Assembly: GCA_038212275.1 (NCBI GenBank)
Contig: JBBQUR010000003.1
Location: forward strand, 64,001 to 128,000
DNA from: Planctomycetota bacterium
Lineage (GTDB): Bacteria > Planctomycetota > B15-G4
Reading direction: 5' to 3'
Length of the DNA: 64,000 nt
Part shown: positions 6,476 through 59,528 of the stretch, in pieces
Numbering within the stretch: the stretch's first letter is position 1
How the letters are laid out: each line of letters begins with the position of its first letter
Made by a program: the position numbers and the translations under genes
The notes under the pieces: generated by a model
Database searches by the model: none
What the model saw: only the letters and a program-made list of their open reading frames with translations
Told to the model about the DNA's origin: nothing

Positions 6476-6665
6476 GGGAATGACCTTCGGGAAGTTCCTG
6501 CTCCAGCGACAGGGGCAGTTCGCATTCCCGGAGTGGTGACTTGAGTCGCCTGCCGATCTCCACGCCGCAGCCGGCTGGGCCCGAGGGCGCGCTTGTCGGT
6601 CGGGCGGTCGGAGGCGCAGGGCGAACGCGCCGGTCGGAAGCGCAGGTCGGGAGGGCCGGGCGCCG

Positions 6666-7667: not shown

Positions 7668-7808
7668 GCTGGCCTCCGGAATTCAGGTGTGTTGGAGGGC
7701 CAGCTCCTCGCCGAGCCCTGAGACTTCATCGGGAGTCGGCCGAGAGTGTGACAGGGCGGGCGCGCGGCCCGTAGACCCTGTCGTGGCCGCGGCCGGACCA
7801 GAAGCGCA

Positions 7809-9128: not shown

Positions 9129-9131
9129 CTC

Positions 9132-10400
9132 TCAGATCCCCGGCGCGCAACGGGCGGGGACTGCGCCCGGCGGGCGGGGCGGGTTGCCGGGCGCGCCCTC
9201 CGGAGTCTCGCCGGCGGGCGTGTCGACGGCGGGCTCCGCGGGGTGCTTCACATGCCATGTGTAGACAGTGAGCCAGCGCTTCTCGCCGGTGAAGTCCTCC
9301 GGTTTGAGGCGGCCGCCGAATGCGCGCGCCAGTGTCCGCAGCGGATCGACCGGCTTCTGCTCGAGCGCCCAGCTGATCCAGGCCTTGTCCAGCGCGTCCA
9401 TGTCGAGGCCCTTGAAGACCTTGGTCGTGGACTTCTGGAAGTTCTTGCTGTCCTTGAAGTCCTTGATGAACTTCGGGATCAGCTCGCGGAAGGCCGGCGT
9501 CTCGTTGTGCATCAGGAACTGCACCATCGACCAGCCCTGCGCGTAGTAGACGCCGGGATTCGCGTAGTACTCCTCCTGGGCGAAGCCGAGCAGCTTCTGG
9601 AAGCTGACGGCCGCGCCGTCGGTGAAGGCGCGCTGCAGCGTGCGCATGCGGCCCTGGTTGATGTCGCCGAGCCGGTAGCCGCTGGCATCGCCGTGCTGCT
9701 CGTCGCGCGAGGCCATGAAGAAGTAGTCGCCGATGCCTTCATCGATCCACGCCGGCATGGTCACGATGGACGTCGTGTAGAAATGGAAGTACTGATGCCA
9801 GCCCTCGTGCGACAGCACGCGTGCCGTGTCCATCGTGTAGGCATCGGTGATCTCCTCGAAGAGCTCGGCGATCCGCGTCCGCTCTTCCGGCGTGAGGTCC
9901 TTCTCGGCTTCGGGGGTGAGGCCAAGCTGGGCCGGGATGTCGCGCTTGCCGAGGACGACCCCCGTGTCGTAGCCGACGAGCTCACCGGCGCCCTGGCTGT
10001 AGTAGGCGACGGCGCCGCCGTTACCGCCGTAGTCCACGAAGGCCTGCCGGTCCTTGAAGAGCTTGAGCACGAAGCCGTCGAGCTTCCGGTGCGTCGGCAG
10101 GAAGGATCGGTAAAGGTCGAGCATGGACTCGAGGTGGGCGGCGAGGGCCACGGCCTTGTCCTTCCCGCACTGGCTTTGCACCTGGTAGTGATCGGTCTCG
10201 ACGACCACCCAGCCCGGCGGCGCCTTCTTCGGGTTCCACTTGCCGGGACGCACGACCGGATCGCCGAGCGCGCGCGCGGCTTGAGTCGCCAGCAGGAGCA
10301 CCAGCAGCGCCGCGGCAAGACGCGCCACGCTTGCTCGCGACGCGCTCGTTCCGCGCGCGAGTGGCGCGGCTTGCGACGAGGCGTTGCGCGAAGCGTCCAT
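9132..10400 (-). CDS. DUF1570-like zincin metallopeptidase (HEGWH), paralog 1
   Basis: Signal peptide; SHEGWHQY, PAWIDEGIGDY, YAQGWSMVQFL; start may be downstream. Confidence 0.75.
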   Translation of the reverse strand: MDASRNASSQAAPLARGTSASRASVARLAAALLVLLLATQAARALGDPVVRPGKWNPKKAPPGWVVVETDHYQVQSQCGKDKAVALAAHLESMLDLYRSFLPTHRKLDGFVLKLFKDRQAFVDYGGNGGAVAYYSQGAGELVGYDTGVVLGKRDIPAQLGLTPEAEKDLTPEERTRIAELFEEITDAYTMDTARVLSHEGWHQYFHFYTTSIVTMPAWIDEGIGDYFFMASRDEQHGDASGYRLGDINQGRMRTLQRAFTDGAAVSFQKLLGFAQEEYYANPGVYYAQGWSMVQFLMHNETPAFRELIPKFIKDFKDSKNFQKSTTKVFKGLDMDALDKAWISWALEQKPVDPLRTLARAFGGRLKPEDFTGEKRWLTVYTWHVKHPAEPAVDTPAGETPEGAPGNPPRPPGAVPARCAPGI

Positions 10401-10539
10401 GCTATAGTCCGCCGTCCTCTGGCAGCGCAGGGGTGGGCGCCGCCGAGTCGAGCGGGTCCCCTGCGGTGTGTGCGGCCTGCGGGCTGGTTCCCACCGACGC
10501 GCAGCGCGGGGTCAGCATAAGTCTTCCGCCCTGGAATGG

Positions 10540-12747
10540 ATGCCGATGGCGCTTGGTGTTGGTGGCAAGTGGTCCAAGGAACAGAGCAGCGAGCTCTACA
10601 ACCTGTCCGGCTGGGGCAGCCCCTACTTCTCGATCGCGGAGGACGGCGCGGTGCAGGTGCACCCCGCGGGTCCCGGCACGCCGACGGCGTCGCTGCCTGA
10701 CATCATCGCGTCGGCCAAGCGCCAGGGCATGTCCCTGCCGCTGCTGCTGCGCTTCGACGGCATCCTGCGTGAGCGCCTCAAGGTGCTCTCGGGCGCCTTC
10801 CGCAGCGCCGCCGAGGAGTACGGCTTTCCGGGCCGGCACCGGCCGGTCTATCCCATCAAGGTGAACCAGCAGCGGCACGTCGTGGAGACGCTCCTCGAAG
10901 CGGGGCGCGACATCGGCATGGGCCTGGAGGTCGGCAGCAAGCCGGAGCTGCTCGCCGTCGTGGCGCAGCTCGACCGCCCCAGCCTGATGATCTGCAACGG
11001 CTACAAGGACGAGGCCTACATGGAGATGGCCTGTCTCGCGGTGCGCCTCGGGCACGAGGTCGTCGTGGTCATCGAGAAGCCGTCCGAGATCGAGACCTTC
11101 TCGCGTGTCGTCGATCGCGAGGGCCGCAACGCGGCGCCCTTCGTCGGCCTGCGCAGCCGCCTCGCGACACGCGGCAGCGGCCGCTGGGAAAGCTCCTCGG
11201 GCGACCGCGCCAAGTTCGGCCTCTCGGCGGCGCAGCTCGTGGAGGCCGTGGGCTGGCTGCGCGACGTGAACCTTCTGGATCGCGTGCGCCTGCTGCACTT
11301 CCACATCGGCAGCCAGATCACGGCCATCCGGCCGTGGAAGGACGTGCTCAAGGAAGCCGTGCGGCTCTTCGTGGAGCTGCACCGCATGGGCTGCCCGCTG
11401 GACCTGTTCGACGTGGGCGGCGGCCTCGCCGTGGATTACGACGGCAGCCGCACGCGCTTCGACAGCTCGATGAACTACACCGAGCAGGAGTATGCCAACG
11501 ACGTCGTGTGGCACATCCACGATGCATGCACGAAGGCCGGCATCAAGAGCCCGGACATCGTCACGGAGAGCGGCCGCGCGCTCGTGGCGCACCACTCGGT
11601 CATGGCGGTGGAGGTCATCGGCGTGTCGCGGCTCTCGCGCGACGGCGTCATCGAGAAGGCCGGCCGCAACGAGAGCGACATCCTGCAGGAGGTGCGCGAC
11701 AATCTCTCGCGCCTCACGCGCAAGAACATGCTCGAGGTCTATCACGACGCCGTGAGCCTGCGCGAGGAGATGCTCTCGCGCTTCAACCTCGGCCTCGTGG
11801 ACCTTCCCACGCGCGCGCTGTGCGAGAACATCTTCTTCGCCACCTGCGACCGCGTCCTCAGCCTCGTGCGCACCCTGGACTACGTGCCCGACGAGTTCTC
11901 GGGCCTCGAGAAGCAGATCGCCGACACCTACTTCTGCAACTTCTCGGTCTTCCAGTCGGTGCCCGACCACTGGGCCATCCGCCACGTCTTCCCGTGCATG
12001 CCGATCCAGCGCCTCAACGAAGAGCCCACCGTGCGCGCCGTGCTGGGCGACATGACCTGCGACAGCGACGGCAAGATCGACCGCTTCCCGCACCAGCGCG
12101 ACGAGAAGCAGACGCTCGAGGTGCACACGCTGAAGCCCGGCGAGAGCTACGTCGTCGGCATCTTCCTCGTCGGCGCCTACCAGGAAATCCTGGGCGACCT
12201 GCACAACCTCTTCGGCGACACCGACACCGTGCACGTGGACTTCGACGCGGCCGGCAACGTGAAGATCGTGGACCGCCTGCAGGGCGAGCCGGTGGGCAAG
12301 GTGCTCTCCTACGTCGGCTACGACGAGGGCTGGCTGATGGCCCGCTACGACCGCTCGCTCGCCAAGCTGGTGGAGAAGGGCGACCTCACCCAGGCCGAGG
12401 CCGAGGAAGTGCGCGACGACCTCGTGAGCGGCCTGCGCAGCAACACCTACCTCACCGCGCGCTCGGTGCGCGCCGTGCGCCAGGACGACTTCGCGGAAAT
12501 GGACGTGGGCCCGACGGACAGCGGCCCGGCCGGCGGCTCAGGCGCGTCCGGCCCTGCGACAGGCAACGGCCACGTCGGCAACGGCTCCGGCGGGAGCAGT
12601 GCAGGCGCGACCAGCACCGGCGCGACCAGCACCGGTGGCGCGCAGGCAAGCGGCCTCCGCGGCGGCGCGATGGGTCTCGGCGGCACGACGCTGCCCACTC
12701 CGCCGAGCGCACCGCCCGCCGGCTCCCGCGAGCCGGTCGGGCGCTGA
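10540..12747 (+). CDS. speA: Biosynthetic arginine decarboxylase
   Basis: VYPIKVNQQ PLP-lysine motif, GLEVGSKPEL, HFHIGSQI, DVGGGL, TCDSDGKID, GAYQEILGDLHNLFGD; low-complexity C-terminal tail. Confidence 0.96.
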   Translation: MPMALGVGGKWSKEQSSELYNLSGWGSPYFSIAEDGAVQVHPAGPGTPTASLPDIIASAKRQGMSLPLLLRFDGILRERLKVLSGAFRSAAEEYGFPGRHRPVYPIKVNQQRHVVETLLEAGRDIGMGLEVGSKPELLAVVAQLDRPSLMICNGYKDEAYMEMACLAVRLGHEVVVVIEKPSEIETFSRVVDREGRNAAPFVGLRSRLATRGSGRWESSSGDRAKFGLSAAQLVEAVGWLRDVNLLDRVRLLHFHIGSQITAIRPWKDVLKEAVRLFVELHRMGCPLDLFDVGGGLAVDYDGSRTRFDSSMNYTEQEYANDVVWHIHDACTKAGIKSPDIVTESGRALVAHHSVMAVEVIGVSRLSRDGVIEKAGRNESDILQEVRDNLSRLTRKNMLEVYHDAVSLREEMLSRFNLGLVDLPTRALCENIFFATCDRVLSLVRTLDYVPDEFSGLEKQIADTYFCNFSVFQSVPDHWAIRHVFPCMPIQRLNEEPTVRAVLGDMTCDSDGKIDRFPHQRDEKQTLEVHTLKPGESYVVGIFLVGAYQEILGDLHNLFGDTDTVHVDFDAAGNVKIVDRLQGEPVGKVLSYVGYDEGWLMARYDRSLAKLVEKGDLTQAEAEEVRDDLVSGLRSNTYLTARSVRAVRQDDFAEMDVGPTDSGPAGGSGASGPATGNGHVGNGSGGSSAGATSTGATSTGGAQASGLRGGAMGLGGTTLPTPPSAPPAGSREPVGR

Positions 12748-12839
12748 CCGCCTGACGCTGCCGGTCGCCTGCCTCCGGAACGGCCCGGTGGATCCTCCGG
12801 CCTCGATGACCGATCGTGGCTCGCACGGAGAATGCTGCC

Positions 12840-13640
12840 ATGTCCGGCGATGAAGCCCTCGTGCTGCTCGTGTCGGTCCTGCTCGGGCCGCTGGCGTGGG
12901 GCCTGTGGTTCTGGCGACTCTCGGGCCTGGACCGGACTGGCCGCCGTCGCCCCGTGATGGAAAGGCTGCTCGCGGTGCTCGCGGCCTGCGCCGCGGGCCT
13001 GCTGGCCGTGCTGCTCACGCTGGCCGCGCACGACGTGCGCGACTCCTTCGCCTACATCTGCCTGTATCTGCTGCTCGGCTCCGCGTGGTTGCGCATGTCC
13101 GAGCGCTGCCTGCCGTGGTTCGGCTTGAGCGTGCGCGACGACCTCGTCGAGCGCGGCAACGACGTGGTGCTGCCCGCGCTGGCGGGATTCCTCGGCGCGA
13201 TGACGCTGGCCTACGCGGGCGCCAACATCGGCGATGGCCCGGGTTGGTGGGTGGTCGTCGTCTGCGCGGGCCTCGCATCGCTGGCGGTGCTCCTGGCGTG
13301 GGCGGCGCTCGAGTGCTTCGCATCCGTCGCGGAGCAGGTCACGGTGGAGCGCGATCGCGCGGCGGGCTGGCGCCTCGGCGGCTTCCTGCTCGCGTGCGGC
13401 GCCATCGCGGGCCGCGCCGTGGCCGGCGACTGGATCTCCGCCGACGCGACGCTTCGCGACTTCGTCTTCCGCGCATGGCCATTGCTCATGCTGCTCGTCG
13501 CGGCGCTGCTGGTGGAGTTCGCCGCGAGGCCACGACCGGACCGCCTGCGGACGTCCTTCGCCGGGCTGGGCGCACTGCCTGCCTGCGCCTATCTCGCCCT
13601 CGCCGCAAGCGCCATCGCGGCCGAAGGCTGGCCGGCATGA
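12840..13640 (+). CDS. DUF350 (YjfL)-like multi-pass membrane protein
   Basis: About 8 hydrophobic segments; internal duplication DLVERGN / QVTVERD; context upstream of a GSP-synthase-like gene. Confidence 0.6.
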   Translation: MSGDEALVLLVSVLLGPLAWGLWFWRLSGLDRTGRRRPVMERLLAVLAACAAGLLAVLLTLAAHDVRDSFAYICLYLLLGSAWLRMSERCLPWFGLSVRDDLVERGNDVVLPALAGFLGAMTLAYAGANIGDGPGWWVVVVCAGLASLAVLLAWAALECFASVAEQVTVERDRAAGWRLGGFLLACGAIAGRAVAGDWISADATLRDFVFRAWPLLMLLVAALLVEFAARPRPDRLRTSFAGLGALPACAYLALAASAIAAEGWPA

Positions 13641-48291: not shown

Positions 48292-48411
48292 ACGGCGCGC
48301 GCCGACAGCGCACGACGCTTGCCTGGGTGCTCGGGGTCGGCCTGCCCGTGCGCGCCGCGACCATCGCCCCTGATGCCCGGGCGCGCTCCGGTCTGTAAGC
48401 TCTGCGGCCCC

Positions 48412-50625
48412 GTGACACTCCTCGTTCTCAACGACGTCCACAAGCACTGGCCCGGCCGCGACCTGCTCGAGGGCGCGTCGCTGCAGATCGATCCGGGCGA
48501 GAAGATCGGCCTCGTGGGGCCCAACGGCGCGGGCAAGACCACGCTGCTCAAGCTCATCATCGGCGAGGACGAGCCCGACGGCGGCAGCGTCACGCTGCGG
48601 CGCGGGGCGCGGCTCGGCTACGTGCCGCAACGGCCGGAGTTTCCGCGCGGCGTGACGGTGCGGCAGCACGTCGGCTCGGGCCTCGCGGAACTGCTCGCGG
48701 CGCTCGCGGAGCATCATCGTGTCAGCGAGGCGCTCTCGCACGGCACGCACGAGGACCGCGGCGAGCACGCGCTGGACGAGGCCGCGCTGCTCAAGCTCAT
48801 CGAGGAGCAGGACCGCCTCGGGCATCTCATCGAGACCCTCGGCGGCTGGCACGTGGAGAACCGCGTCGAGCAGGTGCTCGCGGGCGTCGGCCTCGCGCCG
48901 GGCCTGTGGGACCGCGAGGCCGCCACGCTCTCGGGCGGCGAGAAGAGCCGCACCGCGCTGGCGGCCGCGCTCGTCGGCGGGCACGAACTGCTCATCCTCG
49001 ACGAGCCCACCAATCACCTCGACCTGCACGGCATCGAGTGGATCGAGGAATACCTGCGCACGCTTTCCGGCGCCGTGCTCATCGTGAGCCACGACCGCCG
49101 GCTGCTCGACACCTCGGTGGACGCGATCGTCGAGCTGGAGCACGGCACGCTGTCGCGCTACCCCGGCGGCTACACCAAGTATCTGCGCCTGCGCGCCGAA
49201 CGCTACCTCGCCGAGCGCCGCGCCTGGGATGAGCAGCAGGAATACATCCGCAAGGAAGATGCCTTCATCCGCAAATACATGGGCGGCCAGCGCACGACGG
49301 AAGCGCGCGGCCGCCGCACGCGCCTCGCCAGCCTCAAGCGCCTGCCCGAGCCGCGCCACGACGTGCGCGCGCCGGTCATCCGCCTGCCGCCCGCCGCCGA
49401 GGGCGGCGAACTGGTGCTCGAAGCGCGTGAGCTGTCCGGCGGCTACGCGGCAGCGCCGGGAGGCAGCGCTGCGGCCGGTGGCACCGGTGCGTCCGGTGCT
49501 CGCGCTGCGCTCGGCGCGACCGGCGCGCGCGCGGCGGCCGGCAAGGCGCGTGCCCTGTTCGCCGGAGTGGACCTGCGCGTCGACAAGGGCATGCGCATCG
49601 GAATCGTCGGACGCAACGGCGCGGGCAAGACCACGCTGCTCAAGATTCTCGCGGGAAAGATGGCGCCGCTCGCGGGCGAGCTGCGCACCGGGCACAAGGC
49701 CGCGTGCGGCTACTACGACCAGGAGACCGCCGGCCTGCTGCACGACGGCACGCCGATGACCGAGATCCGCCGCGACCACGCGCTCATGGTGGACGGCGAG
49801 GTTCGCAGCTGGCTCGCGCGCTTCCTCTTCCGCGGCGACGACGTCGAGAAGGACGTGTCGAAACTCTCGGGCGGCGAGCGCGCGCGGCTCTCGCTGGCCA
49901 AGCTGGTGCTCAACGGGCCGACGTGGCTCGCGCTGGACGAGCCCACCAACCACCTCGACCTGCCCGGCCGCACCGCGCTGGAGGAAGCGCTCTCGGAATT
50001 CACCGGCGCAATGCTCTTCGTGAGCCACGACCGCGCCTTCCTCGACGGCCTCTGCACGCACATCATGGAAGTGGGCAACGAGGACGACCCGGTGGACCCT
50101 GGCGACGCGCCCGAGGCCGCGCGCCACCCGCCGCGCCGCGTGCGTCTCGTGCTCGGCAACTACAGCGAGTGGCACGCCCGCGTGCTGCGCGAACGCGGCG
50201 AGCGCCAGGTGCAGCGCAAGGAGGACGGCCCGCGCACGTCTGCGACGCCGAGCGCGTCGGCGGCGGCGGTGCCTGCAGCGGCTGCCTCCGCGCGAGCCGC
50301 GAAGGACGAGACGTCCGCGAAGTCCGCCCCGTCAGCGAAGCCCGAGAAGGCTGAGAAGGCCGAGAAGGCTGAGAAGGCCGAGAAGGCCGCCGCGAAAGTG
50401 CCCGCCGCATCGTCCGGCCCCGAGCGCGTGCGCAACCCGTTCCGATTCAAGCAGCTCGAGGCGCGCATCATGGAGCTCGAAAAGGAGCTGAAGCTGCTGC
50501 ACGCGAAGATCGCCAGCCCCGAGGTCTACCTCGCGCCCGACAAGTTGAAAGTCACCGGCCAGCGCCTCGCCGTCGTCGAGCAGGAACTCGCCGCGGCGAA
50601 CAGCGAGTGGGAGAACTGGGGGTAG
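48412..50625 (+). CDS. ABC-F family ATP-binding protein (Uup/YheS-like)
   Basis: Two ABC cassettes (GPNGAGKTT/LSGGE/DEPTNHLD twice), no TM, C-terminal coiled coil. Confidence 0.93.
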   Translation: MTLLVLNDVHKHWPGRDLLEGASLQIDPGEKIGLVGPNGAGKTTLLKLIIGEDEPDGGSVTLRRGARLGYVPQRPEFPRGVTVRQHVGSGLAELLAALAEHHRVSEALSHGTHEDRGEHALDEAALLKLIEEQDRLGHLIETLGGWHVENRVEQVLAGVGLAPGLWDREAATLSGGEKSRTALAAALVGGHELLILDEPTNHLDLHGIEWIEEYLRTLSGAVLIVSHDRRLLDTSVDAIVELEHGTLSRYPGGYTKYLRLRAERYLAERRAWDEQQEYIRKEDAFIRKYMGGQRTTEARGRRTRLASLKRLPEPRHDVRAPVIRLPPAAEGGELVLEARELSGGYAAAPGGSAAAGGTGASGARAALGATGARAAAGKARALFAGVDLRVDKGMRIGIVGRNGAGKTTLLKILAGKMAPLAGELRTGHKAACGYYDQETAGLLHDGTPMTEIRRDHALMVDGEVRSWLARFLFRGDDVEKDVSKLSGGERARLSLAKLVLNGPTWLALDEPTNHLDLPGRTALEEALSEFTGAMLFVSHDRAFLDGLCTHIMEVGNEDDPVDPGDAPEAARHPPRRVRLVLGNYSEWHARVLRERGERQVQRKEDGPRTSATPSASAAAVPAAAASARAAKDETSAKSAPSAKPEKAEKAEKAEKAEKAAAKVPAASSGPERVRNPFRFKQLEARIMELEKELKLLHAKIASPEVYLAPDKLKVTGQRLAVVEQELAAANSEWENWG

Positions 50626-50654
50626 GTGATGGGATCGGTACGCGGAGCCCGGGC

Positions 50655-51116
50655 ATGACCGGGCGAGACAGACCCGACACGCCCGGCGCACCCGATGCGT
50701 CCGACGCCCACCCGCTGCACCCCGCCTACTTCACGACGCGCTTCCACACCGAGGCCGCGGTGCCAGCGTGGCCCGCAGAGTTCGTGATCCTCTCCGCCTG
50801 CGCGACGACAGGTGAGACGTGGTCCGCGGAGCGCACGGCGCAGGCCGACCGCGCGCTCGAGAGCGAGTTGCGCGAGCGCAGCACGTGGGTCGTGCGCATC
50901 ACCGGTTCTTCCCCGAGCGGCGACCACGCCGAGCCGAGCTGGGCCGCGATTCTGCCGCTACCCGACGCGCTCGATGTGGGCCGCCGCTTCCTGCAGGACG
51001 CGCTCTACATCGTCCGCGGCGATGCCCTTTCCGTGACGCGCTGCAGTGACGATGCGCCGCTCGTCCACGTGGGCTCCTTCGCGGCGCACCTCGACCAGCC
51101 TCGCGCAGACCACTGA
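50655..51116 (+). CDS. DUF3293-like protein
   Basis: AY..T.F, FVILSA, G.SP.GDHAEPSW, GRRFLQDA. Confidence 0.7.
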   Translation: MTGRDRPDTPGAPDASDAHPLHPAYFTTRFHTEAAVPAWPAEFVILSACATTGETWSAERTAQADRALESELRERSTWVVRITGSSPSGDHAEPSWAAILPLPDALDVGRRFLQDALYIVRGDALSVTRCSDDAPLVHVGSFAAHLDQPRADH

Positions 51117-51119
51117 GGT

Positions 51120-52124
51120 TCAGCATCGCAGCCCGGCCGCATCGCGCCGCTCCACGAAGGCTTCCGGCTCGACCGCGCCCGGCGCGTAGACCAGTGTGAC
51201 CAGCGCCTCGGCGGCGCCGGCGCACACCTCGCCCACCGCGCGCGCGCGGGCCGCGAGCGCACCCTTGCGATCGGCCTTGTGGGGATCCTTGCCGTAGAAC
51301 GCCCCGCCGCCGATGGGCACGCCGGGCCCCGCGCCATCCACGACGAGCTTCTTGCCCGACAGCCCGTTGTCGCCGTGCGGCCCGCCGATGGAGAAGTCGC
51401 CCGCACCGTTGAGGTGCAGGTGCGCGGAGTCGAAGCGCGCCACGCCGGGCAGTGCCGCCTCCAGCTCCGCGCAGCCCGCGCGGATCACCGGCACGAGCAG
51501 CCGATGCTGCTCCTCGTACGAAAGCCCCGGCACGTGCTGGATCGAGAACACCAGCCGTGTCCAGGTGCACGTGAGCCGATGCCCCGCGGGAAACGTGTTG
51601 TCCCCCTGCAGCACCGGCAGCAGCTTGAAGTCCGGGCCGAAGGTCTGCGGCGCATGCTGCTCCCGCCATCGGCGCACGTGCTCTCCGAGGCGCAGCGCGA
51701 GCCAGTGCGCGGGCGGCAGGTAGTCCGTGCCCGCGTTGCCGCAGGCGTAGCCGACGCAGATGGCCTGGTCGTCGGAGAGGTGGCGCATCTCGCGCTCGTC
51801 CTGCGAAAGTGCTTCGGCGCACAGATCGTGCGTGACGATGAGCCGCTCCGGGTCGGGCGACCACAGGCCGCCGTAGCCCGCCGCGCGATACGCGGCGCGC
51901 GCGAAGCGCGGCAGGAACTCGTCCGGGTCGCCCGGGCCGTGCGGCCCCGCGGCGATGCGCCCGGTGACGAAGACCTTGTCGGTGGACACGGCCACCTCCA
52001 CGCCGACGAGCGCATCGGGATCGATGGCAATCGCGTGCTGCACGCAGGCCTCCGCGATGGCGTCGGCCAGGCGGTCCGGGTGACCCGGCGAGACGTATTC
52101 GGCGCAATGAACGGTGCGGGACAT
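51120..52124 (-). CDS. metK: Divergent methionine adenosyltransferase (MetK-like)
   Basis: AEYVSPGHPDRLAD, DDQAICVGYA, GGPHGDNGLSGKKLVVD, GGGAFYGKDPHKADR; AAGGAG RBS. Confidence 0.85.
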   Translation of the reverse strand: MSRTVHCAEYVSPGHPDRLADAIAEACVQHAIAIDPDALVGVEVAVSTDKVFVTGRIAAGPHGPGDPDEFLPRFARAAYRAAGYGGLWSPDPERLIVTHDLCAEALSQDEREMRHLSDDQAICVGYACGNAGTDYLPPAHWLALRLGEHVRRWREQHAPQTFGPDFKLLPVLQGDNTFPAGHRLTCTWTRLVFSIQHVPGLSYEEQHRLLVPVIRAGCAELEAALPGVARFDSAHLHLNGAGDFSIGGPHGDNGLSGKKLVVDGAGPGVPIGGGAFYGKDPHKADRKGALAARARAVGEVCAGAAEALVTLVYAPGAVEPEAFVERRDAAGLRC

Positions 52125-52156
52125 GCGAGGTGACTCCTTGGGGACATGCGGCGCGC

Positions 52157-53566
52157 TCAGGCGCCGCCGAGATCGGGAAGCAGTTCGACGTGGCGCGCTG
52201 CGGGAGCAAGGTCGTTGTGCGACGCGGCGCCGAGCGGCCGGTACAGGCCCACATACAGCGCCGTGCCGAGGCTGGTGAACGCGTCGGGCGCGACCGCGCC
52301 GACGTAGCCGTCGGTGATCAGCACGGTGCGCCGCGGCCGGCGCGTGCGCGGCAGCGCGGCGAGGTGCTGGAGGACGCAGCGGATGTCGGTGCCCAGCGTG
52401 TTGGCGAGGCGCTGACGCAGCAGATCCTGCGGCGACACCTCGCCGATCACGGTGCTGAACACGAAAAGCCGGATCGCGCGCGCCCGGTGCAGCGGCGCCA
52501 GCGCGCCCGCGAGTGGCCGCAGCGCGGCAGCCATCGAGCCGCTCACGTCCAGATAGACGTGCGCAACGGGCAGCGGTTCGCGACGCGTGCGCGGCGCGAG
52601 ACAGCTCCCGCGGTAGAGCAGCGGAGCGGCGCCGGTCAGCCGCCGCAGCGCGTGGGCGCGCCGATCGCCGGCCTGCGGCAGCACCGTTTCGATCTCCAGC
52701 GGCTGCACGGAGTGGAGCAGGCGGCGGCTGCCGTGCCACGCGTGCTGCTGCAGGCCGGCACGCGCCAGCAGGCGGCGGATCGCGGCGCGCAGCGCGCGCG
52801 TCGGGTCGGCCGGGGCACCGAGCATCCAGGACTTCACGGGGCGCCCCGTGTCGCGCCCGCCGAGGCGTTGCCGCGGAGGCGGCCAGCCCTCGACGACGCG
52901 GCGCAGCACGTCGCGCAGCGTCGCGTCGCGCGTCGCGGAGTCATCCCGCACGCCGTCACCGTGCTCGCCTTCGTGGTCGCCGAGCAGCACGGGCGATGTG
53001 TCCTCGCCGTCGTCGAGCAGCGCGGTGAGCAGCTCGAAGATCTCGTGGTACGTGATGTCGCCAGTGCGCCCGTAGAGCAGGTCGTGGATGCGGCGCTCCT
53101 CGGGTCCCGCGTCGGCGGGCAGCGGCTGCGGGCGTTCGGGCCAGCCGGGCGCCGGGCGCAGCAGCCGCCCGGGGAACTCCTCCCATGAGTTGAGCGCCTG
53201 GAAGAAGGACGTGAACTCGCGCCCCGGAAACTGCTGGCAGAGCAGCGCGTTGATGACCGCGTCGAAGGCGAGGTTGTGCGCGAGCGTGGCGCGCGGGAAC
53301 AGCCGTGTGTGCCCGAGCACCACGTGCTGCAGCTCGTGCATGACCAGCAGGAAGAGGTGCTCGTCCGTCCGGCACGACGCCTCGATGAAGCGCGGATTCA
53401 GCAGCATCCGCGGGCGCTCGACGCACTCGATGGCGGCGGTGGGCACGTCCTCCGTGCAGGCGATGTCCACGAGCGAAAGGAGCTTCTCCATCTGGTAACT
53501 CGCGGCCGGGATCACGGAGTAGATGCGCGCGCGCAGCCGGGCGGCGTCGGAGTCGTGCGTGGTCAT
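52157..53566 (-). CDS. DUF2201-like HExxH metallopeptidase + VWA domain protein
   Basis: MHELQH, NLAFDAVIN, MIDAS YLDVSGSM, GTD, LITDG. Confidence 0.85.
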   Translation of the reverse strand: MTTHDSDAARLRARIYSVIPAASYQMEKLLSLVDIACTEDVPTAAIECVERPRMLLNPRFIEASCRTDEHLFLLVMHELQHVVLGHTRLFPRATLAHNLAFDAVINALLCQQFPGREFTSFFQALNSWEEFPGRLLRPAPGWPERPQPLPADAGPEERRIHDLLYGRTGDITYHEIFELLTALLDDGEDTSPVLLGDHEGEHGDGVRDDSATRDATLRDVLRRVVEGWPPPRQRLGGRDTGRPVKSWMLGAPADPTRALRAAIRRLLARAGLQQHAWHGSRRLLHSVQPLEIETVLPQAGDRRAHALRRLTGAAPLLYRGSCLAPRTRREPLPVAHVYLDVSGSMAAALRPLAGALAPLHRARAIRLFVFSTVIGEVSPQDLLRQRLANTLGTDIRCVLQHLAALPRTRRPRRTVLITDGYVGAVAPDAFTSLGTALYVGLYRPLGAASHNDLAPAARHVELLPDLGGA

Positions 53567-54264
53567 GGCGTCCCCTCGGGTTGCCGCGCGCCGGGGTGTG
53601 GCTTCGGAGCCGCGGCCGCCCGACGCCTGCGCGTCCGGACTTGCGCGGTGAGAAAACGCGGGTCATCCACCGCGAGGTCGGCCTCGAAGAGGTGACGCCA
53701 GGTGCGGTCCGGCGCACGCGACGCGATGGAGAGTGCGCCGACGCGCCGCTCGAGCACCGCGAGGGTGAGCGCGAGGTCTGCGCACGGTGCCCAGACGTCT
53801 CCGGGAGCCCAGTCTTCGGGTGGAAACCAGCCCATGAGCACGCCGCTCGGCCTGCAGCGCGATGCCCCGTGCTGTCCTGCCGCGTCCGCCGCGCATGGCG
53901 CGGAGTCGAGCAGCGCGCGATCGAGGCAGCCGGCGCGTGTGGCCGAGGCGAGCAGGCGCTCGATGCTGCCCTTCCAGCGTCTCTGCGCCTTCCGCACCAG
54001 CGCGGCGCGCAGGGAGGATGGCACGGGTCCGTATCTGGCAATCTCTTCGCGTGTTGCCATGCTGGTCGGAGCGGACGCGCGCGCCGGCACTGCCGCATTC
54101 GCCACCAACCTGGCGGCGCGCGCTCGCGGAGCCGTGTCCAGCAGGCCCTGCGCGAGCAGCGCATGCGCGAGGCTGAACACCGTCACCCGTCCCCAGACCG
54201 GCTTCTGGAGCGACGTGACCTGCGTGCGCGGGGGCGCGCTCATGTTGTGGAGCCACGTCGTCAT
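53563..54264 (-). CDS. Hypothetical protein
   Basis: ATGA overlaps at both ends within the operon; no family recognised. Confidence 0.55.
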   Translation of the reverse strand: MTTWLHNMSAPPRTQVTSLQKPVWGRVTVFSLAHALLAQGLLDTAPRARAARLVANAAVPARASAPTSMATREEIARYGPVPSSLRAALVRKAQRRWKGSIERLLASATRAGCLDRALLDSAPCAADAAGQHGASRCRPSGVLMGWFPPEDWAPGDVWAPCADLALTLAVLERRVGALSIASRAPDRTWRHLFEADLAVDDPRFLTAQVRTRRRRAAAAPKPHPGARQPEGTP

Positions 54265-55847
54265 CGCGGGCCCTCGACGGACAGGCGTTCCGCGAGGCGC
54301 AGGCGCTGCCAGAGTTGCCGGAAGGTGTCGAGCACGCGCTGCGGCGTCGTCGTCCCGAAGCCATCCGGCAGGAGCGACTCGAGCAGATTGCGGGCATAGC
54401 CGTTGTGCACGCGTGCCGGATGGCCGTCGTCCACCGGCAACTCGGCGGCGAGGCGACCGATCTCGCGCGCCGTGTTCACCTGCGCGGCCGACACCGACAG
54501 CGAGCGCACCGCGGGCTGCAGCGCGCGCCGCGCGTCGCGCGCCAGCGTCTCGAAGGCGGTGGCGTGCAGGCGCCCGTCGCGGTGCAGCGCGAGGTGCAGC
54601 GCCAGGGCCACGGCCGTGCGGCGCGCGGGCTCCGTCACCGACGCGACGCCGTCGAGCACGAGCGGCGTCAGCTCGTCGGCCCCGAAGCCGGGCAACTCGA
54701 TGGCGCGGAGCGCGCGCTCGAGCGGGTCGGGCGTGGCGAGGAGCGCGCGCCACGGGTCGTCGTCGGCCAGGCCGCTGAGCTTCCACGCGTGGCGGTGCAG
54801 AGCGAGCAGCGCGGCGCGGTCTGCACGGCCGTGTCGCGCGAGCTCCGGGTCACCGTGCAGGACCGCGAGCCACAACGATGTGTTCCAGTCCACCTCGCCG
54901 ATGGGCGCGGTCGGATGTGCGGCGCGTTGCAGCGTGACGCGCGCTGCCTGCAGCGCGAGCGCCGAGCGCAGCAGCATCGTCAGGCGGCGCGTGGAGAACG
55001 CCGGCTGCTTGCAGGCTTCGCGCTGCGCGGCCAGCGCGAGGAAGTAGTTCGCGAGACGGTCCGGCACCGAGCGCGAGAAGGCCGCGAACAACTGCTCGGC
55101 TCGCGCCACAAGATCCGGCAACTCCACCGGAAACTCGTGCCGTCCGTGGAACTGGTCGAGCAGGATCGAGCGGCGCTCGTGATCCGTGAGGTCGGCCCAG
55201 GTCGGCACCTCGACGAGGAAGGCAAAGCGGTCCGCGAGCGCAGGGTCGAGCGGCTCGGCGCCGAGATAGGCGTCGTCGTCCGCGCCGTCGGCATCGTCCG
55301 CGGCGGGCGGATTCATGGCCGCCCAGCGGTAGCGCAGCTTCTCGAGCAGCACGCCCTGCACGCGCCGTTCGTGCACGATCGGGAACAGCTTGTTCGCGAG
55401 GTCCGGCCGGCAGCGCGACAACTCGTCGATGAACACCACCTCGGCGTCCCAGATCGCCGTCGGCGTCGCGATGTAGCGCAGGTGGGTAGCGCTTTCGTCG
55501 GGCACCGGCACGCCGACGAGGTCGTCGTAGTTGAGCAGGCTCGCGTTGTAGAAGCGGTACTCCAGGCGCAGCGCCTGCGCCAGCCGCTCCAGCAGAAAGC
55601 TCTTGGCCGTGCCGTGCCGCCCGATGAGCAGCATCGGCTCCGCGCTCGCGAGCGCCGCGAGCACGACCGGCTCGAGCGCGGTCCAGCCGTGCAGCCCGAG
55701 AGGCTCCGTGAGCAGCGAGGGGATGCACATCGTGGGTCGCACCTGCGCCTCGTCTGGCGCCAGAAGGGGCGTCGGCGGGGGCGCCGGTGCGGCCGCGCCA
55801 TCGGATCCGGCTGCGGTCCGGGCTGCAGTTCGGACGCGCGGACTCAC
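54261..55847 (-). CDS. MoxR-type AAA+ ATPase
   Basis: Walker A GRHGTAKS, Walker B VVFIDE, AAMNP, PLDPALADRF, STRR; GTG overlaps upstream stop. Confidence 0.88.
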   Translation of the reverse strand: MSPRVRTAARTAAGSDGAAAPAPPPTPLLAPDEAQVRPTMCIPSLLTEPLGLHGWTALEPVVLAALASAEPMLLIGRHGTAKSFLLERLAQALRLEYRFYNASLLNYDDLVGVPVPDESATHLRYIATPTAIWDAEVVFIDELSRCRPDLANKLFPIVHERRVQGVLLEKLRYRWAAMNPPAADDADGADDDAYLGAEPLDPALADRFAFLVEVPTWADLTDHERRSILLDQFHGRHEFPVELPDLVARAEQLFAAFSRSVPDRLANYFLALAAQREACKQPAFSTRRLTMLLRSALALQAARVTLQRAAHPTAPIGEVDWNTSLWLAVLHGDPELARHGRADRAALLALHRHAWKLSGLADDDPWRALLATPDPLERALRAIELPGFGADELTPLVLDGVASVTEPARRTAVALALHLALHRDGRLHATAFETLARDARRALQPAVRSLSVSAAQVNTAREIGRLAAELPVDDGHPARVHNGYARNLLESLLPDGFGTTTPQRVLDTFRQLWQRLRLAERLSVEGPR

Positions 55848-56068
55848 GAGCGTACCGCCGCGGTCGGCTGTGCCAGGTGCGCGAGGAGTGCGTCGCGCAG
55901 GAGGATGGCCTCGTCGCGCCGCTGCGTGCGCAGCGATCGGCGCACGCGGCGGACCCGGCCGTCAAGCGTCTCGAGCGTGTAGTGGATCCACCAGACGCCG
56001 TGGTTGTTCCACAGGTGGTGGAGCGGATTGCCGCCGGTGATGCGGAGGGACAGGCGCGCTGCGCGCAT
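55844..56068 (-). CDS. Small basic conserved protein (NPxHHLWNNxGxWW)
   Basis: 74 aa; AAAGGAA RBS; first gene after the riboswitch. Confidence 0.7.
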   Translation of the reverse strand: MRAARLSLRITGGNPLHHLWNNHGVWWIHYTLETLDGRVRRVRRSLRTQRRDEAILLRDALLAHLAQPTAAVRS

Positions 56069-56095
56069 GGTGCGTGTTCCTTTCGGTCACGCACC
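56069..56095 (-). promoter_or_regulatory. RBS-sequestering hairpin (putative riboswitch expression platform)
   Basis: Transcript GGUGCGUG-ACC-GAAA-GGAA-CACGCACC-AUG: 8-bp stem abutting the start codon with the SD inside. Confidence 0.55.
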
Positions 56096-56164
56096 AGAAA
56101 CACGGCCGCGCGTCGTCGCGCTGTCGTCGGAAGTTTCGTTCGCCGGGGCGCTCACGCCCCGCGC

Positions 56165-56260
56165 GCATCCCTCCGGCGTACGCCGCCGGAGGAAACCACC
56201 TTGGCCTTCCGGGCCAGGTTGGCCGACCCCTCCCGCGAGGGAGGAGCCGTTCCTGATGCT
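56165..56260 (-). ncRNA. SAM-I (S-box) clan riboswitch, variant
   Basis: P1 GCAUC/GAUGC; J1/2 AGGAA; P2 CGGCUCCUCCC-UCGC-GGGAGGGGUCG; P3 CCAACCU-GGCC-CGGAA-GGCC-AAGGUGG; P4 CUCCGGCG-GCGUA-CGCCGGAG; metK-like gene downstream; TAGAGT -10 box at 56268-56273. Confidence 0.75.
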
Positions 56261-56378
56261 GGTGCGGACTCTAACCTGCCGCGCCGGATCGCGCACCGGT
56301 CATGTGTGTCATGAAATCCGGTGCGGCCGGCAGCCCCGCTCCCGTGTCACGGCGCTGACAGAATGTGTGCCCGCTGGT

Positions 56379-56411
<33 letters not shown>

Positions 56412-57020
56412 TGGATCTGCCGTTCCGGGACATCGGGAGCATGATCCTGCGCCTGCAGCTGCGCGATGATCGGGGCGCGCGGGGCATCGGCCTGCTCGAG
56501 CGGCCCCGCACTCATCTGCCGGCGGTCTTCCGAAATCATTCCCCGTCGGGGGCTCGGCGGCGCCGTGCGCCGGGCGGCGTGACTTCCACGTCCACGCTGG
56601 TCTCGCCGTCGCCGGCCGCGCTCTTCAGCACGATGCGCGCGGTCCACCATTCGCGAGTGTCGAAGTCGCACCTGGCGACGTAGCGCAATCTGCCGCGCGA
56701 CACAACGGCGACACCGGCGGAGATCCAGCGCCGGGGCGGGGATGAGCGCGTGGCCGTCGTGCTGTCCGCCAACTCGGCCATGGCCCACCTCTGCCATGAC
56801 ATCGGACGAATGCTCCTGCAGAGCCGGGAATGCGCGGCCGGGGAGCCAGGGTGATCGACCGGCTCGCCGCGGATCCCCGGCTCCAACGTGGCGTGGAGCA
56901 GGCGCTCGTCGATCTCGGGGAGCGTTTCCGCCTGGAGCCGGGCAGCGGCTTCGCCTCCGCGTGCTCAACGCACGAAGACCGAACGATGACGCGGCGAGCC
57001 GCGCTCGTACAAATCCCTTG

Positions 57021-57521
57021 CTATCGTTTTCGACGCATCGCGGCGGGTCGCGATCTGGTTGCGACATCGCGCGTCCGCAGCTCGACATGGCAGCCCAGCA
57101 CGCCCAGCAGCTCGATCAGTTGCCGCAGCGACGTGCGTGGTTTGCCGGTGTCGAGCACTCGGTAGAGCTGAGCAGCCGAGGTGCCGAGTCGCCGGCAGAT
57201 CTCGCGGTGGGAGAGGAGTGTCTTTTCCATGCGCCGCTGAGCCTCCAACGTCAGCTCATAGGCCAAGATGTCCGCCATGAAGGCCGGGTCCTTGTTCTCG
57301 TCGAGGACAGCATCCAGGTGGAGCGATCCCTCGCGTCCCGAGGCGAGCTCGTACGTGAAGGCCTCGCGCCCGAGTTCCGGGTCCACGTAGACGCGGACGA
57401 TGCGGTCCCTGGAGGTCGGCTTCGGTGTGACCTTGGCGTAGGGAAAGCGCAACAGGCCCTTGGGTGTCGCGACCTCGAAGGCCTTGCTGCGGTTGTTGGC
57501 GCGCACGCTGCGGATCTTCAA
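57021..57521 (-). CDS. Putative antitoxin: DUF2442-like N-terminus + C-terminal HTH
   Basis: TTG start overlapping upstream stop; HTH SHREICRRLGTSAAQLYRVLD. Confidence 0.7.
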   Translation of the reverse strand: MKIRSVRANNRSKAFEVATPKGLLRFPYAKVTPKPTSRDRIVRVYVDPELGREAFTYELASGREGSLHLDAVLDENKDPAFMADILAYELTLEAQRRMEKTLLSHREICRRLGTSAAQLYRVLDTGKPRTSLRQLIELLGVLGCHVELRTRDVATRSRPAAMRRKR

Positions 57522-57712
57522 AGCTGGCCCTCGGCAACGAGTTGCTCGATGACCCGACGGACGCGCCTGCTCGCGTGTCCGCTGATCGGACGAAGTCTTT
57601 CCAGGTCCCATTTCACGAGCAGGATCCTCCGGAAGTCGACGTGCACATGCCGTGGGTCGTGGTCACCCTTCCATGTGAGGAAGATGTCACCCGCCCGTCG
57701 GATCTTCGACAT
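57518..57712 (-). CDS. Putative toxin, DUF4160-like
   Basis: 64 aa with DHDPRHVHV motif; coupled to the HTH gene. Confidence 0.65.
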   Translation of the reverse strand: MSKIRRAGDIFLTWKGDHDPRHVHVDFRRILLVKWDLERLRPISGHASRRVRRVIEQLVAEGQL

Positions 57713-57962: not shown

Positions 57963-59528
57963 TCAGCTCGCCGCGAGAATCCGCCGTGCGCCCTTCGCCA
58001 GGCTCGATTCGAAGGACGCACGCCGCACGGCGCGCGCGCGGCGGCGCTCGGAGGATTGCAGCTCGTGGCGCAGTGCGGCGGGGAGCAGGTCGGTGATCGC
58101 GTCGCACTCCACGCCGCCCTTGTGCGCGTGGTCGAAGCCGGCCAGCGCGCGGTCGTAACCCTGCTGGCCTGGCACGCGCTTGCAGCCGTGCACCAGCGCG
58201 GCGACGACCTCGGCGCGGTCCGCGAGCGTCAGCGACGGATGCGTCGCGATGCGCGCGCCCCAGTCGTCGAAGCAGGGCCCCAGCGGCAGCAGCAGATCCG
58301 GGCTGCCGCGCAGGCAACGCGCCTCGCGCAGCGGGTAGTGGCGATGTCCCTCGGACGCGAGCAACTCGCGGTAGAGCGCACCGGCCTGCAGGAAGGCGCC
58401 GCCGTAGCGGGCGTGGCCGGCGGCCGGCGCCTCGCCGCCGACGAGCGCAGGGCCGCTGCGCACGAGGTCGCCGTAGCGATCCTTCTGTGCGGCGCCGACG
58501 CGCTTGCCGCTCTTCGCGGCGAGGCCCTGCATGACGTCGCCGGCATTGTGCGTGAGGATCGCGGCGAGCTGCAGCAGCGCCAGCTCGCGCCCCGGCTTCG
58601 CCGCGCAGGCGAGAAACACGGCGGCTTCGCGCGACAGCTCCGCATCGATCTCGTGCTCGAAGCGCGCCGCGCCAGGCTCGTCGCCCGCCGCGAGCAGGCC
58701 GAGCATGCCGCCGCACAGGACGGAGAGCCGCTCTCCGTCGTGCCCGGAAACGACGTCCGGGAGGCTCGTGCCGATCGCACGCGCGTCGCTCGCGTCGGCG
58801 AAGCCTGTTCCCGTCCGTTGCGCGGTCACGACTGCGGTCGTCGACGCCGACGCACTTGCCGCGCCCGCCGCGCCCGTCGCGCCCGACACGCCCGACACGC
58901 CCGACACGCCCGACACGCCCGACACGCCCGACACGCCTGCCTCGACCCAGCGCGCGCTGATGCCGCGGATGTCCCAACCGGCCAGCGCGAGCGCGAGCTC
59001 GACCATGCGCGCCAGTTCCTCGGGAGGCTGGTCCTCGAACCAGAGCGCATGGCGGATCTTCGCGTCCACGTCGGTGGGCACGTAGCTCGCGACGGAGGCC
59101 CAGTGCGCGGCGAGGCACAGCGCGAAGTAGTCGGTGCGCGACGCGGCGTCGGGCAGCGCCGTCGCGACGAGCAGTTCCGGCCGGCGCGAGTGCGCCATGA
59201 GGATGCGCCACCAGCCCAGCGGATGCGCGCCGAGGTCCGACAGCCGCACGCCCTGAGGCACCGAGGCATCGTCCGGCAGACGGCCGGCGTCGGGATGGCT
59301 GCCGTCGAACAACCACGGCGCCGCGACATGCACCAGGCCGACGAGCGTGCGCGGCCCGATGAACCCGCCGAAAGCACCGGACGGCTCCGGCGAGGGTGCG
59401 TCGGCCGAAGGATTCGGCACGGGCGCAACCGTCGGCGGGGGGCGAGAGGTCGGCCATCGGCTTCCGGCTGCGGGACGGTGGAGCGCCTGCGGATCTCGCT
59501 GGCGCGCGGCGGCGAGCGAGTGTGTCAA
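57963..59528 (-). CDS. Conserved hypothetical helical protein with His motifs
   Basis: Long GC3-biased ORF; AAHW...PTDVD, SGHDGE, THNAGD, EGHRHY; start uncertain. Confidence 0.65.
   Translation of the reverse strand: MTHSLAAARQRDPQALHRPAAGSRWPTSRPPPTVAPVPNPSADAPSPEPSGAFGGFIGPRTLVGLVHVAAPWLFDGSHPDAGRLPDDASVPQGVRLSDLGAHPLGWWRILMAHSRRPELLVATALPDAASRTDYFALCLAAHWASVASYVPTDVDAKIRHALWFEDQPPEELARMVELALALAGWDIRGISARWVEAGVSGVSGVSGVSGVSGVSGATGAAGAASASASTTAVVTAQRTGTGFADASDARAIGTSLPDVVSGHDGERLSVLCGGMLGLLAAGDEPGAARFEHEIDAELSREAAVFLACAAKPGRELALLQLAAILTHNAGDVMQGLAAKSGKRVGAAQKDRYGDLVRSGPALVGGEAPAAGHARYGGAFLQAGALYRELLASEGHRHYPLREARCLRGSPDLLLPLGPCFDDWGARIATHPSLTLADRAEVVAALVHGCKRVPGQQGYDRALAGFDHAHKGGVECDAITDLLPAALRHELQSSERRRARAVRRASFESSLAKGARRILAAS
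58872..58937. repeat. In-frame 9-mer repeat (GCCCGACAC)n encoding GVS
   Basis: Read directly from the sequence. Confidence 0.85.

Follow-up and report, generated by a model that had tools for sequence, protein, structure and literature searches.

A SAM-I-clan aptamer precedes an accessory operon that joins a MoxR-like ATPase and a VWA-peptidase to a MetK paralogue

Which cellular task would call for a predicted S-adenosylmethionine (SAM) riboswitch, a MoxR-like AAA+ ATPase with a VWA-domain partner and a second, altered SAM synthetase in a single operon? This question is raised by a locus of a Planctomycetota bacterium (assembly GCA_038212275.1, contig JBBQUR010000003.1, positions 64,001 to 128,000 of the forward strand), a stretch of 64,000 nucleotides (nt) hereafter called the window. 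The control of methionine and SAM genes by SAM riboswitches is textbook knowledge, and MoxR/VWA pairs are known as dedicated helpers of single enzymes. The operon described here, or cassette, joins the two around a paralogue of the SAM synthetase MetK, and it occurs at hundreds of environmental loci, with at least 542 relatives.

Gene order, distribution and proteins of the operon

A preliminary description of the window, made from its letters, had listed five minus-strand genes behind an S-box-like RNA, and both the open reading frame (ORF) list and the sequence place the five genes there. The first encodes a basic protein of 74 amino acids (aa), here called p74 (55844-56068, ORF call), and is followed by a MoxR-like ATPase of the AAA_5 family (54261-55847, Pfam; 528 aa with a C-terminal extension of about 300 aa) and by protein X, of 233 aa, which starts at an ATGA and is an ORF call with no family match (53563-54264). 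The fourth gene encodes the VWA-peptidase (52157-53566; 469 aa), in which a zincin-like HELQHVVLGH segment precedes a VWA domain with a full metal-ion-dependent adhesion site (MIDAS), and the fifth encodes the MetK paralogue, MetKL (51120-52124; 334 aa), recognised by TIGR01034 and the S-AdoMet_synt domains. The overlaps joining the first four genes, GTGA at 55844-47, ATGA at 54261-64 and ATGA at 53563-66, were all read in the sequence, as was the 32-nt spacer before MetKL, which holds the ribosome-binding site AAGGAG.

A MetKL search of species-representative genomes led to 10 loci, all in metagenome-assembled genomes (MAGs) of Planctomycetota, Lentisphaerota and Verrucomicrobiota. The order ATPase, X, VWA-peptidase, MetKL is the same in these loci wherever the contig is long enough, and p74 is also encoded in all four that extend beyond the ATPase start. 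From the at least 542 relatives returned by a metagenome search with the ATPase alignment, the best 80 loci were analysed, giving a pooled set of 91 loci (11 genomic and 80 metagenomic; L005 was dropped, as it lies on the same contig as L020). Near-identical pairs remain among the pooled rows (L042/43, L082/85, L089/91, L035/37 and L020/25), so that kin in the counts below are not independent. MetKL lies directly downstream of the VWA gene in 39 of the 44 pooled loci with at least 600 nt of flank, and the X gene, coding for 127-255 aa, was found between the ATPase and VWA genes in 62 of the 62 loci examined. Since related loci with enough flank keep the same order, the adjacency is more than chance, and the proposed co-occurrence of the genes in other genomes holds across phyla, both in bacteria of the Planctomycetota-Verrucomicrobiota-Chlamydiota (PVC) group and in further lineages. 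As a separate observation, the ATPase gene of a Terrimicrobiaceae MAG (L007, 4460-6218) is split over two frames, by a frameshift or an assembly error.

Within the phylum of the window, the VWA-peptidase is encoded in 7 of 401 sampled genomes, its own genome counted, and in 7/7 of these carriers the ATPase and MetKL adjoin it. Taken together, we regard the cassette firmly as a conserved accessory operon, and it has probably spread horizontally.

The last gene was compared with the canonical synthetase. MetKL matches the N- and C-terminal S-AdoMet_synt domains of Pfam above cut-off (45.9 and 58.8 bits) and the middle domain below it (24.8 against 29), while on TIGR01034 it reaches 135.5 bits against a cut-off of 309.4, in agreement with its initial description as MetK-like but divergent. 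Its relatives bear the NCBI name 'methionine adenosyltransferase domain-containing protein'. The window assembly (4.65 Mb, 40 contigs, 91% complete) holds a canonical metK of 578.8 bits on another contig, and each of five other carrier genomes combines a canonical metK (507-583 bits) with a paralogue of 130-150 bits. A separate canonical metK, whose presence the preliminary description had left to be checked, is thus found in 6/6 carrier genomes examined, always above 500 bits, so MetKL is not the housekeeping metK.

Twenty-two MetKL homologues invariantly hold GHPD(R/K)LAD, E43, DDQ, GPDxK, GGPxGDNGLSGKK..D and GGGA..GKD..K.D; with canonical MetK they share the three-domain fold and the GHPD(K/R), DQ, GPDxK, GGPxGD, GKKxxVD and GGGAxxGKDxxKxDR motifs, together with the E of the K+ site. 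MetKL differs from it in that a shorter segment stands in for the gating-loop stretch, GAGDQG has become S-D-D-Q, and at least 90% of the 22 sequences have Arg in place of the Glu of GGEITT, a residue that we take to contact the methionine amino group. It also differs in being an extra copy in all six carriers, and in that the window clade (334-356 aa, most other members having 370-385 aa) lacks the last ~50 residues; judging from the close homologues of 334-356 aa, it is a naturally short form. The gating loop senses the methionine moiety, according to passages of PMC3793261. These motifs firmly identify MetKL as an extra MetK-fold enzyme with a predicted intact catalytic core, and its product would be SAM or a close sulfonium relative.

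Apparent fusions of the VWA-peptidase to MetKL emerged from a search for longer proteins (P0121, P0122, P0123 and P0125). In P0121 and P0123, pairwise alignment showed that the VWA part breaks into an Arg/Pro-rich stretch before MetKL; such proteins are probably frame-shifted read-through and are not counted as fusions. A different arrangement is seen in the database protein P0124 (806 aa, from a 2.8-kb contig), where the middle and C-terminal domains of a MetKL homologue seem to be joined to a SNF2-related helicase.

As regards the proteins encoded upstream of MetKL, the ATPase scores 49.5 bits on Pfam AAA_5 (cut-off 22), stays under the threshold of bpMoxR (23.6 against 27) and matches RavA weakly. 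Its Walker A (G76..G79..K82) and Walker B (D141 E142) residues are invariant in 9 homologues. The nearest solved sequences to its profile are midasin AAA domains (9e-11) and RavA (9e-4), and no CbbQ or NorQ structure was matched at E<0.01. The VWA-peptidase falls below the cut-offs of both DUF2201_N (17.5 bits against 23.2) and VWA_CoxE (19.4 against 26.4); in 47 sequences, however, H77, E78, H81, H86, D340, S342, S344, T372, T418, D419 and G420 are invariant, corresponding to an HExxHxxxxH motif and a complete MIDAS (DxSxS..T..D). The initial calls of a MoxR ATPase and of an HExxH-plus-VWA protein are upheld by these data.

Protein X gave no match in the Pfam and NCBIfam scans. Its 28 aligned sequences, with a mean identity of 18%, share an N-terminal motif L-H-N-M-S-A-P-P-R-T/S, in which Met8 is the sole invariant column; a start codon lies 6-8 codons upstream of Met8, and the codons ahead of it vary synonymously. 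The N-M-S-A-P-P-R part is degenerate in L052, L055, L060, L069 and L072, which belong to the clade without MetKL described below. The AlphaFold2 (AF2) model of X has a mean confidence (pLDDT) of 73.8, and it found no match by Foldseek against the PDB, a best VIA Z of 2.2 and nothing above 0.76 in the ESM Atlas.

The leader RNA and the promoter region

At the Rfam gathering thresholds, no match was obtained in the window or in six related loci. When E-values were used instead, RF01725 (SAM-I/IV; gathering score 41.1 bits) matched the window at 56125-56264 on the minus strand with 25.1 bits (E 0.15), and sub-threshold matches of 31.9-37.5 bits emerged upstream of the cassettes L007, L009, L008, L022 and L021, each on the operon strand and immediately ahead of the first gene. 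Unguided leader alignments with MAFFT and RNAalifold gave a wrong structure and were replaced. A covariance model, R2, was built with Infernal from a hand-set four-way junction (P1-P4) and a 3' hairpin, taken from two near-identical leaders, and was rebuilt on 30 matches. R2 scores the window aptamer, at 56128-56264 on the minus strand, with 82.3 bits (E 2.4e-17). In a search of 701 kb it found 56 sites, all on the operon strand and upstream of p74 or of the ATPase gene.

Covariation was then assessed over the 56 leaders. In an alignment that was fitted to the R2 model and so favours the structure, 95.4% of the cells pair, against 35-48% in controls with slid partners, and compensatory changes occur in 29 of 35 pairs. 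So wide a gap to these controls and so many pair types would hardly arise without a real structure, and the S-box-like RNA proposed upstream of the operon can be identified as a SAM-I-clan aptamer. Canonical SAM-I (RF00162, gathering score 44.4) occurs in other cassettes, above threshold in L085 (59.8 bits), L082 (58.1), L068 (56.9) and L055 (45.4) and just under it in L095 (42.1), L080 (41.2) and L062 (39.5). Overall, a SAM aptamer of either the variant class or canonical SAM-I lies upstream of the cassette in 53 of the 66 loci with at least 700 nt upstream, and most aptamers of cassette loci are of the variant class (the 56 R2 sites). As a side observation, L102 has a possible SAM-II (SAM_alpha) match at 581-658 on the plus strand, about 550 nt upstream of the ATPase gene, with 31 bits against 36; it was not reported in the near-identical L101.

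The PVC variant is closest to SAM-I/IV, with which it shares the P1-P2-P3 core, including the conserved CAUCAAGAG, GCCAACC and AAGGUGGC segments, and the 3' hairpin. It departs from SAM-I/IV by an additional P4-like hairpin in the junction, a SAM-I feature, beside the 3' hairpin, and all its reported matches to RF01725 stay under the gathering score (25.1-37.5 against 41.1 bits). With SAM-I it has the position in common, since canonical SAM-I occupies the same place in the operon in other clades. On sequence grounds it is firm that predicted SAM-sensing RNAs of at least two classes precede the operon, and the leader RNA would bind SAM.

In the genome of the window, R2 finds this site only and none at the canonical metK locus; RF00162 and RF00521 have no match there, and RF00634 has one of 19.8 bits only, located elsewhere. 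It thus seems that the riboswitch is a part of the cassette, which takes it along into genomes that show no other SAM riboswitch.

As to the direction of the switch, at least 22 of 48 leaders have a GC-rich terminator hairpin and a U-run 25-45 nt past the aptamer, and the CCUGAU found in the terminator stems is the complement of the P1 strand CAUCAGG. Because terminators follow the aptamer in many leaders, an OFF switch is indicated, and expression is expected at low SAM. The putative expression platform of the window, as read from its sequence (56069-56127, minus strand), holds no U-run terminator. Here, CUGGUGCGUG has two alternative partners, CGCACCAG on the 5' border of the aptamer and CACGCACC immediately ahead of the AUG, and the hairpin before the AUG is conserved among related leaders. 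Constrained folding gave -122.6 kcal/mol for the state in which P1 and this hairpin form, and -118.2 kcal/mol for the state in which the hairpin opens and the long-range helix forms. These alternative pairings suggest translational or Rho-dependent repression by SAM in the window leader, and an OFF logic in the window genome; in general, the operon is likely to be repressed by SAM.

Upstream of the aptamer, a short box with the consensus TATGACAC was found. Its window copy, ATGACACA (56305-56312, minus strand), lies just upstream of the -35 region. When leaders with less than 100 nt upstream are left out, 21 of 25 related p74-encoding loci, as well as the window, have the box at a distance of 45-56 nt ahead of the aptamer, and two further loci have TATGACAA in its place. 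It is present at that position in 0/24 loci without p74, four of which have it farther upstream; these loci show TTGACA-N17-TATAAT-like promoters instead. The idea that ATGACACA is a terminal or att repeat was discarded, as the window has one other copy (41581) and at least two copies arise in 17 of 100 shuffles. A tandem repeat, GGTGCTGGAGCT, of about three copies (56378-56410, minus strand) was also noticed just upstream of the promoter region, within the ORF 56309-57088.

Homologues of p74 hold the same position in 32 loci. Its AF2 model folds as beta-beta-beta-alpha (pLDDT 80.9) and has no Foldseek match at E<0.001. Its best VIA matches, which are level at Z 4.0-4.5, comprise an integrase arm-type domain (3jtz, Z 4.4, root-mean-square deviation 2.4 over 50 residues), lambda Int (Z 4.0), an AP2 domain and PX domains (Z 4.5); on Pfam DUF6538, p74 has an E-value of 0.024. 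From the model, p74 is possibly a DNA binder of the Arm/AP2 type, and it is a reasonable reading that it acts as an autoregulator with the TATGACAC box as candidate operator.

Loci without MetKL and neighbouring genes

The 5 of 44 loci that have no MetKL after the VWA gene are L052, L055, L068, L072 and L103. In three of them, a Type IIG restriction-methyltransferase gene (encoding 1165-1281 aa) begins 14-85 nt after the VWA gene: L052 at 6068-9604, L055 at 9574-13416 and L068 at 7064-10558. The encoded proteins match Eco57I, MmeI_Mtase and TaqI_C, and the PADLOC family REase_MTase_IIG with E-values of 1e-53 to 1e-109. All three Type IIG loci lie behind a SAM aptamer, which is of the variant class in L052 (R2, 77.6 bits) and is canonical SAM-I above the gathering score in L055 and L068. 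In L072, a 230-aa protein with faint CBS and HepT matches takes the position of MetKL, and in L103 the VWA gene is truncated. In the ATPase tree, obtained by a quick search on 85 rows, L052, L055, L068, L060, L069 and L072 form one clade (SH-aLRT 93), which suggests that the replacement of MetKL by a Type IIG enzyme may have been a single event.

At the other end of the window operon, a DUF3293 gene (50607-51116, plus strand; Pfam 37.3 bits) runs towards MetKL from the opposite strand, the two genes ending 4 nt apart. In the database protein P0114, MetKL and DUF3293 are fused in frame, and in L051 a DUF3293 gene is located two genes after MetKL. On these three cases, DUF3293 may be a sixth, facultative component or accessory partner of the cassette. 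In addition, two genes on the same strand as MetKL follow it elsewhere: a metA-type homoserine O-succinyltransferase directly after it in L004 (9171-10064, plus) and a SAM-dependent O-methyltransferase in L023 (10223-10876, plus).

The 89 flanking ORFs of 25 loci are mixed, and most of them are ordinary metabolic genes or genes without a family. Among the conflict and repair neighbours are DndB, DndC-like, DarT with Macro, ADP-ribosylglycohydrolases and PD-(D/E)XK with UvrD. Specifically, DndB and a PAPS-reductase/DndC-like gene precede the cassette in L009 (1003-3573), DarT and a Macro-domain protein follow it in L072 (10854-12559), next after the 230-aa protein, and a Schlafen/AlbA_2 regulator is a neighbour in L068. 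The toxin-antitoxin pair that had been noted beside the window operon is unconfirmed: a 64-aa ORF (57518-57712, minus) has a sub-threshold match to DUF4160 (21.6 bits against 23) and overlaps a 196-aa ORF (57021-57611, minus), for which no family match was found. Farther away, the window encodes a 521-aa protein with a (GVS)n run and no family match (57963-59528, minus) and an ABC-F protein with an (EKA)n run near its C-terminal arm (48319-50625, plus).

Possible roles of the operon and its relation to known systems

No published description of the operon was found, subscription journals and supplements lying outside the search; a MoxR mention in PMC545781 concerns a Fur site. We tentatively favour, at somewhat less than an even chance, the reading that the cassette is a client-specific AAA+/VWA remodeller of the CbbQO/NorQD style, induced at low SAM and serving a back-up enzyme that resembles SAM synthetase. 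According to this analogy, scarcity of SAM would lead the riboswitch to let the operon be expressed, and the ATPase and its VWA partner, like CbbQ-CbbO or NorQ-NorD, would remodel or activate one specific client, the MetK-like enzyme, which they would assemble, activate or recycle. Protein X and the peptidase domain would take part in the remodelling cycle, contacts among the cassette products being presumed, and a cell short of SAM would have another way of making it or a closely related sulfonium compound. The metA-type gene that follows MetKL in L004 adds a methionine link in support of the activase.

Several observations weigh against a back-up synthetase with its own activase. The analogy covers part of the cassette only, as the known AAA_5/VWA activases have neither a peptidase domain nor a protein X, and it does not explain why an extra synthetase should need three helper proteins. 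The distribution is patchy, as only 1 of 10 further genomes from the family of the window genome encodes the VWA-peptidase, and the host has no other detectable SAM-I, SAM-II or SAM-IV riboswitch; both facts fit a mobile accessory trait better than core metabolism. Above all, the Type IIG clade keeps the riboswitch, the ATPase, X and the VWA-peptidase without MetKL, which shows that the trio need not go with SAM synthesis, and this clade is the strongest argument for a role of that core beyond SAM synthesis.

Some of these observations speak for an anti-phage or counter-counter-defence function, an explanation that we consider possible if on the unlikely side. Here, a fall in SAM, caused for example by a phage SAM lyase, would be read by the riboswitch as an alarm, the operon would supply a replacement SAM synthetase that escapes recognition by phage inhibitors or, in one clade, an extra Type IIG enzyme, and the trio would remove or sense a phage factor. 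The induction of a SAM-consuming restriction-modification enzyme at low SAM, as suggested by the three of three Type IIG genes behind a SAM aptamer, follows the logic of a signal and not a metabolic one. A spread that is patchy and crosses phyla, a riboswitch unique to the cassette in the window genome, the retention of the own metK in every carrier genome examined and the conflict genes next to L009, L072 and L068 point the same way. However, no PADLOC family matches any of the five proteins convincingly (PADLOC-DB 2.0; the best of the marginal matches has E 0.0018 and spans 32 residues), the 89 flanking ORFs are mostly ordinary metabolic genes or genes without a family, the Type IIG variants belong to one clade and may go back to one event, and transcriptional induction may be slow relative to infection. 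The single relative among 2.9 million viral contigs, a decayed cassette without MetKL, says nothing either way. A more general form of the alarm, which we judge unlikely, is that infection or stress de-represses, through the riboswitch, a portable immune-type module with a constant core of AAA+ ATPase, VWA-peptidase and X and an interchangeable last gene, either a MetK paralogue that restores SAM or makes another sulfonium product, or a Type IIG enzyme. If true, this would be the first case of a defence-type system under the direct control of a metabolite riboswitch; in a bolder variant, MetKL would adenosylate the invariant Met of X.

That modification also belongs to the proposal, quite improbable in our view, that MetKL is no SAM synthetase and adenosylates another thioether, possibly X Met8, or makes another sulfonium compound, with the zincin domain processing X and the ATPase/VWA pair driving the cycle. 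It would account for an enzyme that retains its ATP and triphosphate motifs but is altered on the methionine side of the pocket, both in the loop that senses the methionine moiety (PMC3793261) and by the change of Glu to Arg, and for Met8 as the sole invariant residue of X in a motif that degenerates in the MetKL-less clade. Yet the loss of motif and of MetKL coincide in that one clade, maybe through a single event, L068 keeps the Met there and L103 keeps the motif without MetKL; moreover, a conserved Met near the start could partly reflect alternative initiation, though the codons upstream of it behave as coding. Finally, the window could hold a housekeeping metK that lies by chance beside an unrelated MoxR/VWA pair, behind an RNA that is no riboswitch, as the unmet Rfam gathering threshold in the window might suggest. 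This view is refuted by the gene order kept in 39/44 loci, the separate canonical metK, and an aptamer backed by covariation and replaced in other clades by canonical SAM-I over threshold, so that practically no weight is left to it.

Any of the functional readings, if true, would be new, be it a SAM synthetase that needs an ATP-driven activase, SAM depletion used as a danger signal, or a MetK fold turned to a new substrate. Among known systems, the MoxR-vWA ternary conflict systems (bpMoxR), reportedly described by Kaur, Burroughs, Iyer and Aravind in 2020, resemble the cassette in combining a MoxR-like ATPase, a VWA protein and further linked genes, and in their patchy spread. They differ from it in that the cassette ATPase stays below the bpMoxR threshold (23.6 bits against 27), no beta-propeller or VMAP-type partner accompanies it, and a SAM enzyme stands in the effector position.

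In CbbQ-CbbO, the Rubisco activase, and in NorQ-NorD, a MoxR-type AAA_5 ATPase and a VWA-MIDAS partner serve one adjacent client enzyme. What the cassette has in common with these pairs is an AAA_5 ATPase whose Walker motifs are intact, a partner whose MIDAS is full and a presumed client in the same operon. Its VWA partner, in contrast, bears an invariant HExxH, an extra protein X is encoded in all loci examined, and the client would be a MetK paralogue, replaced by a Type IIG enzyme in one clade, with the whole under the predicted control of a SAM riboswitch.

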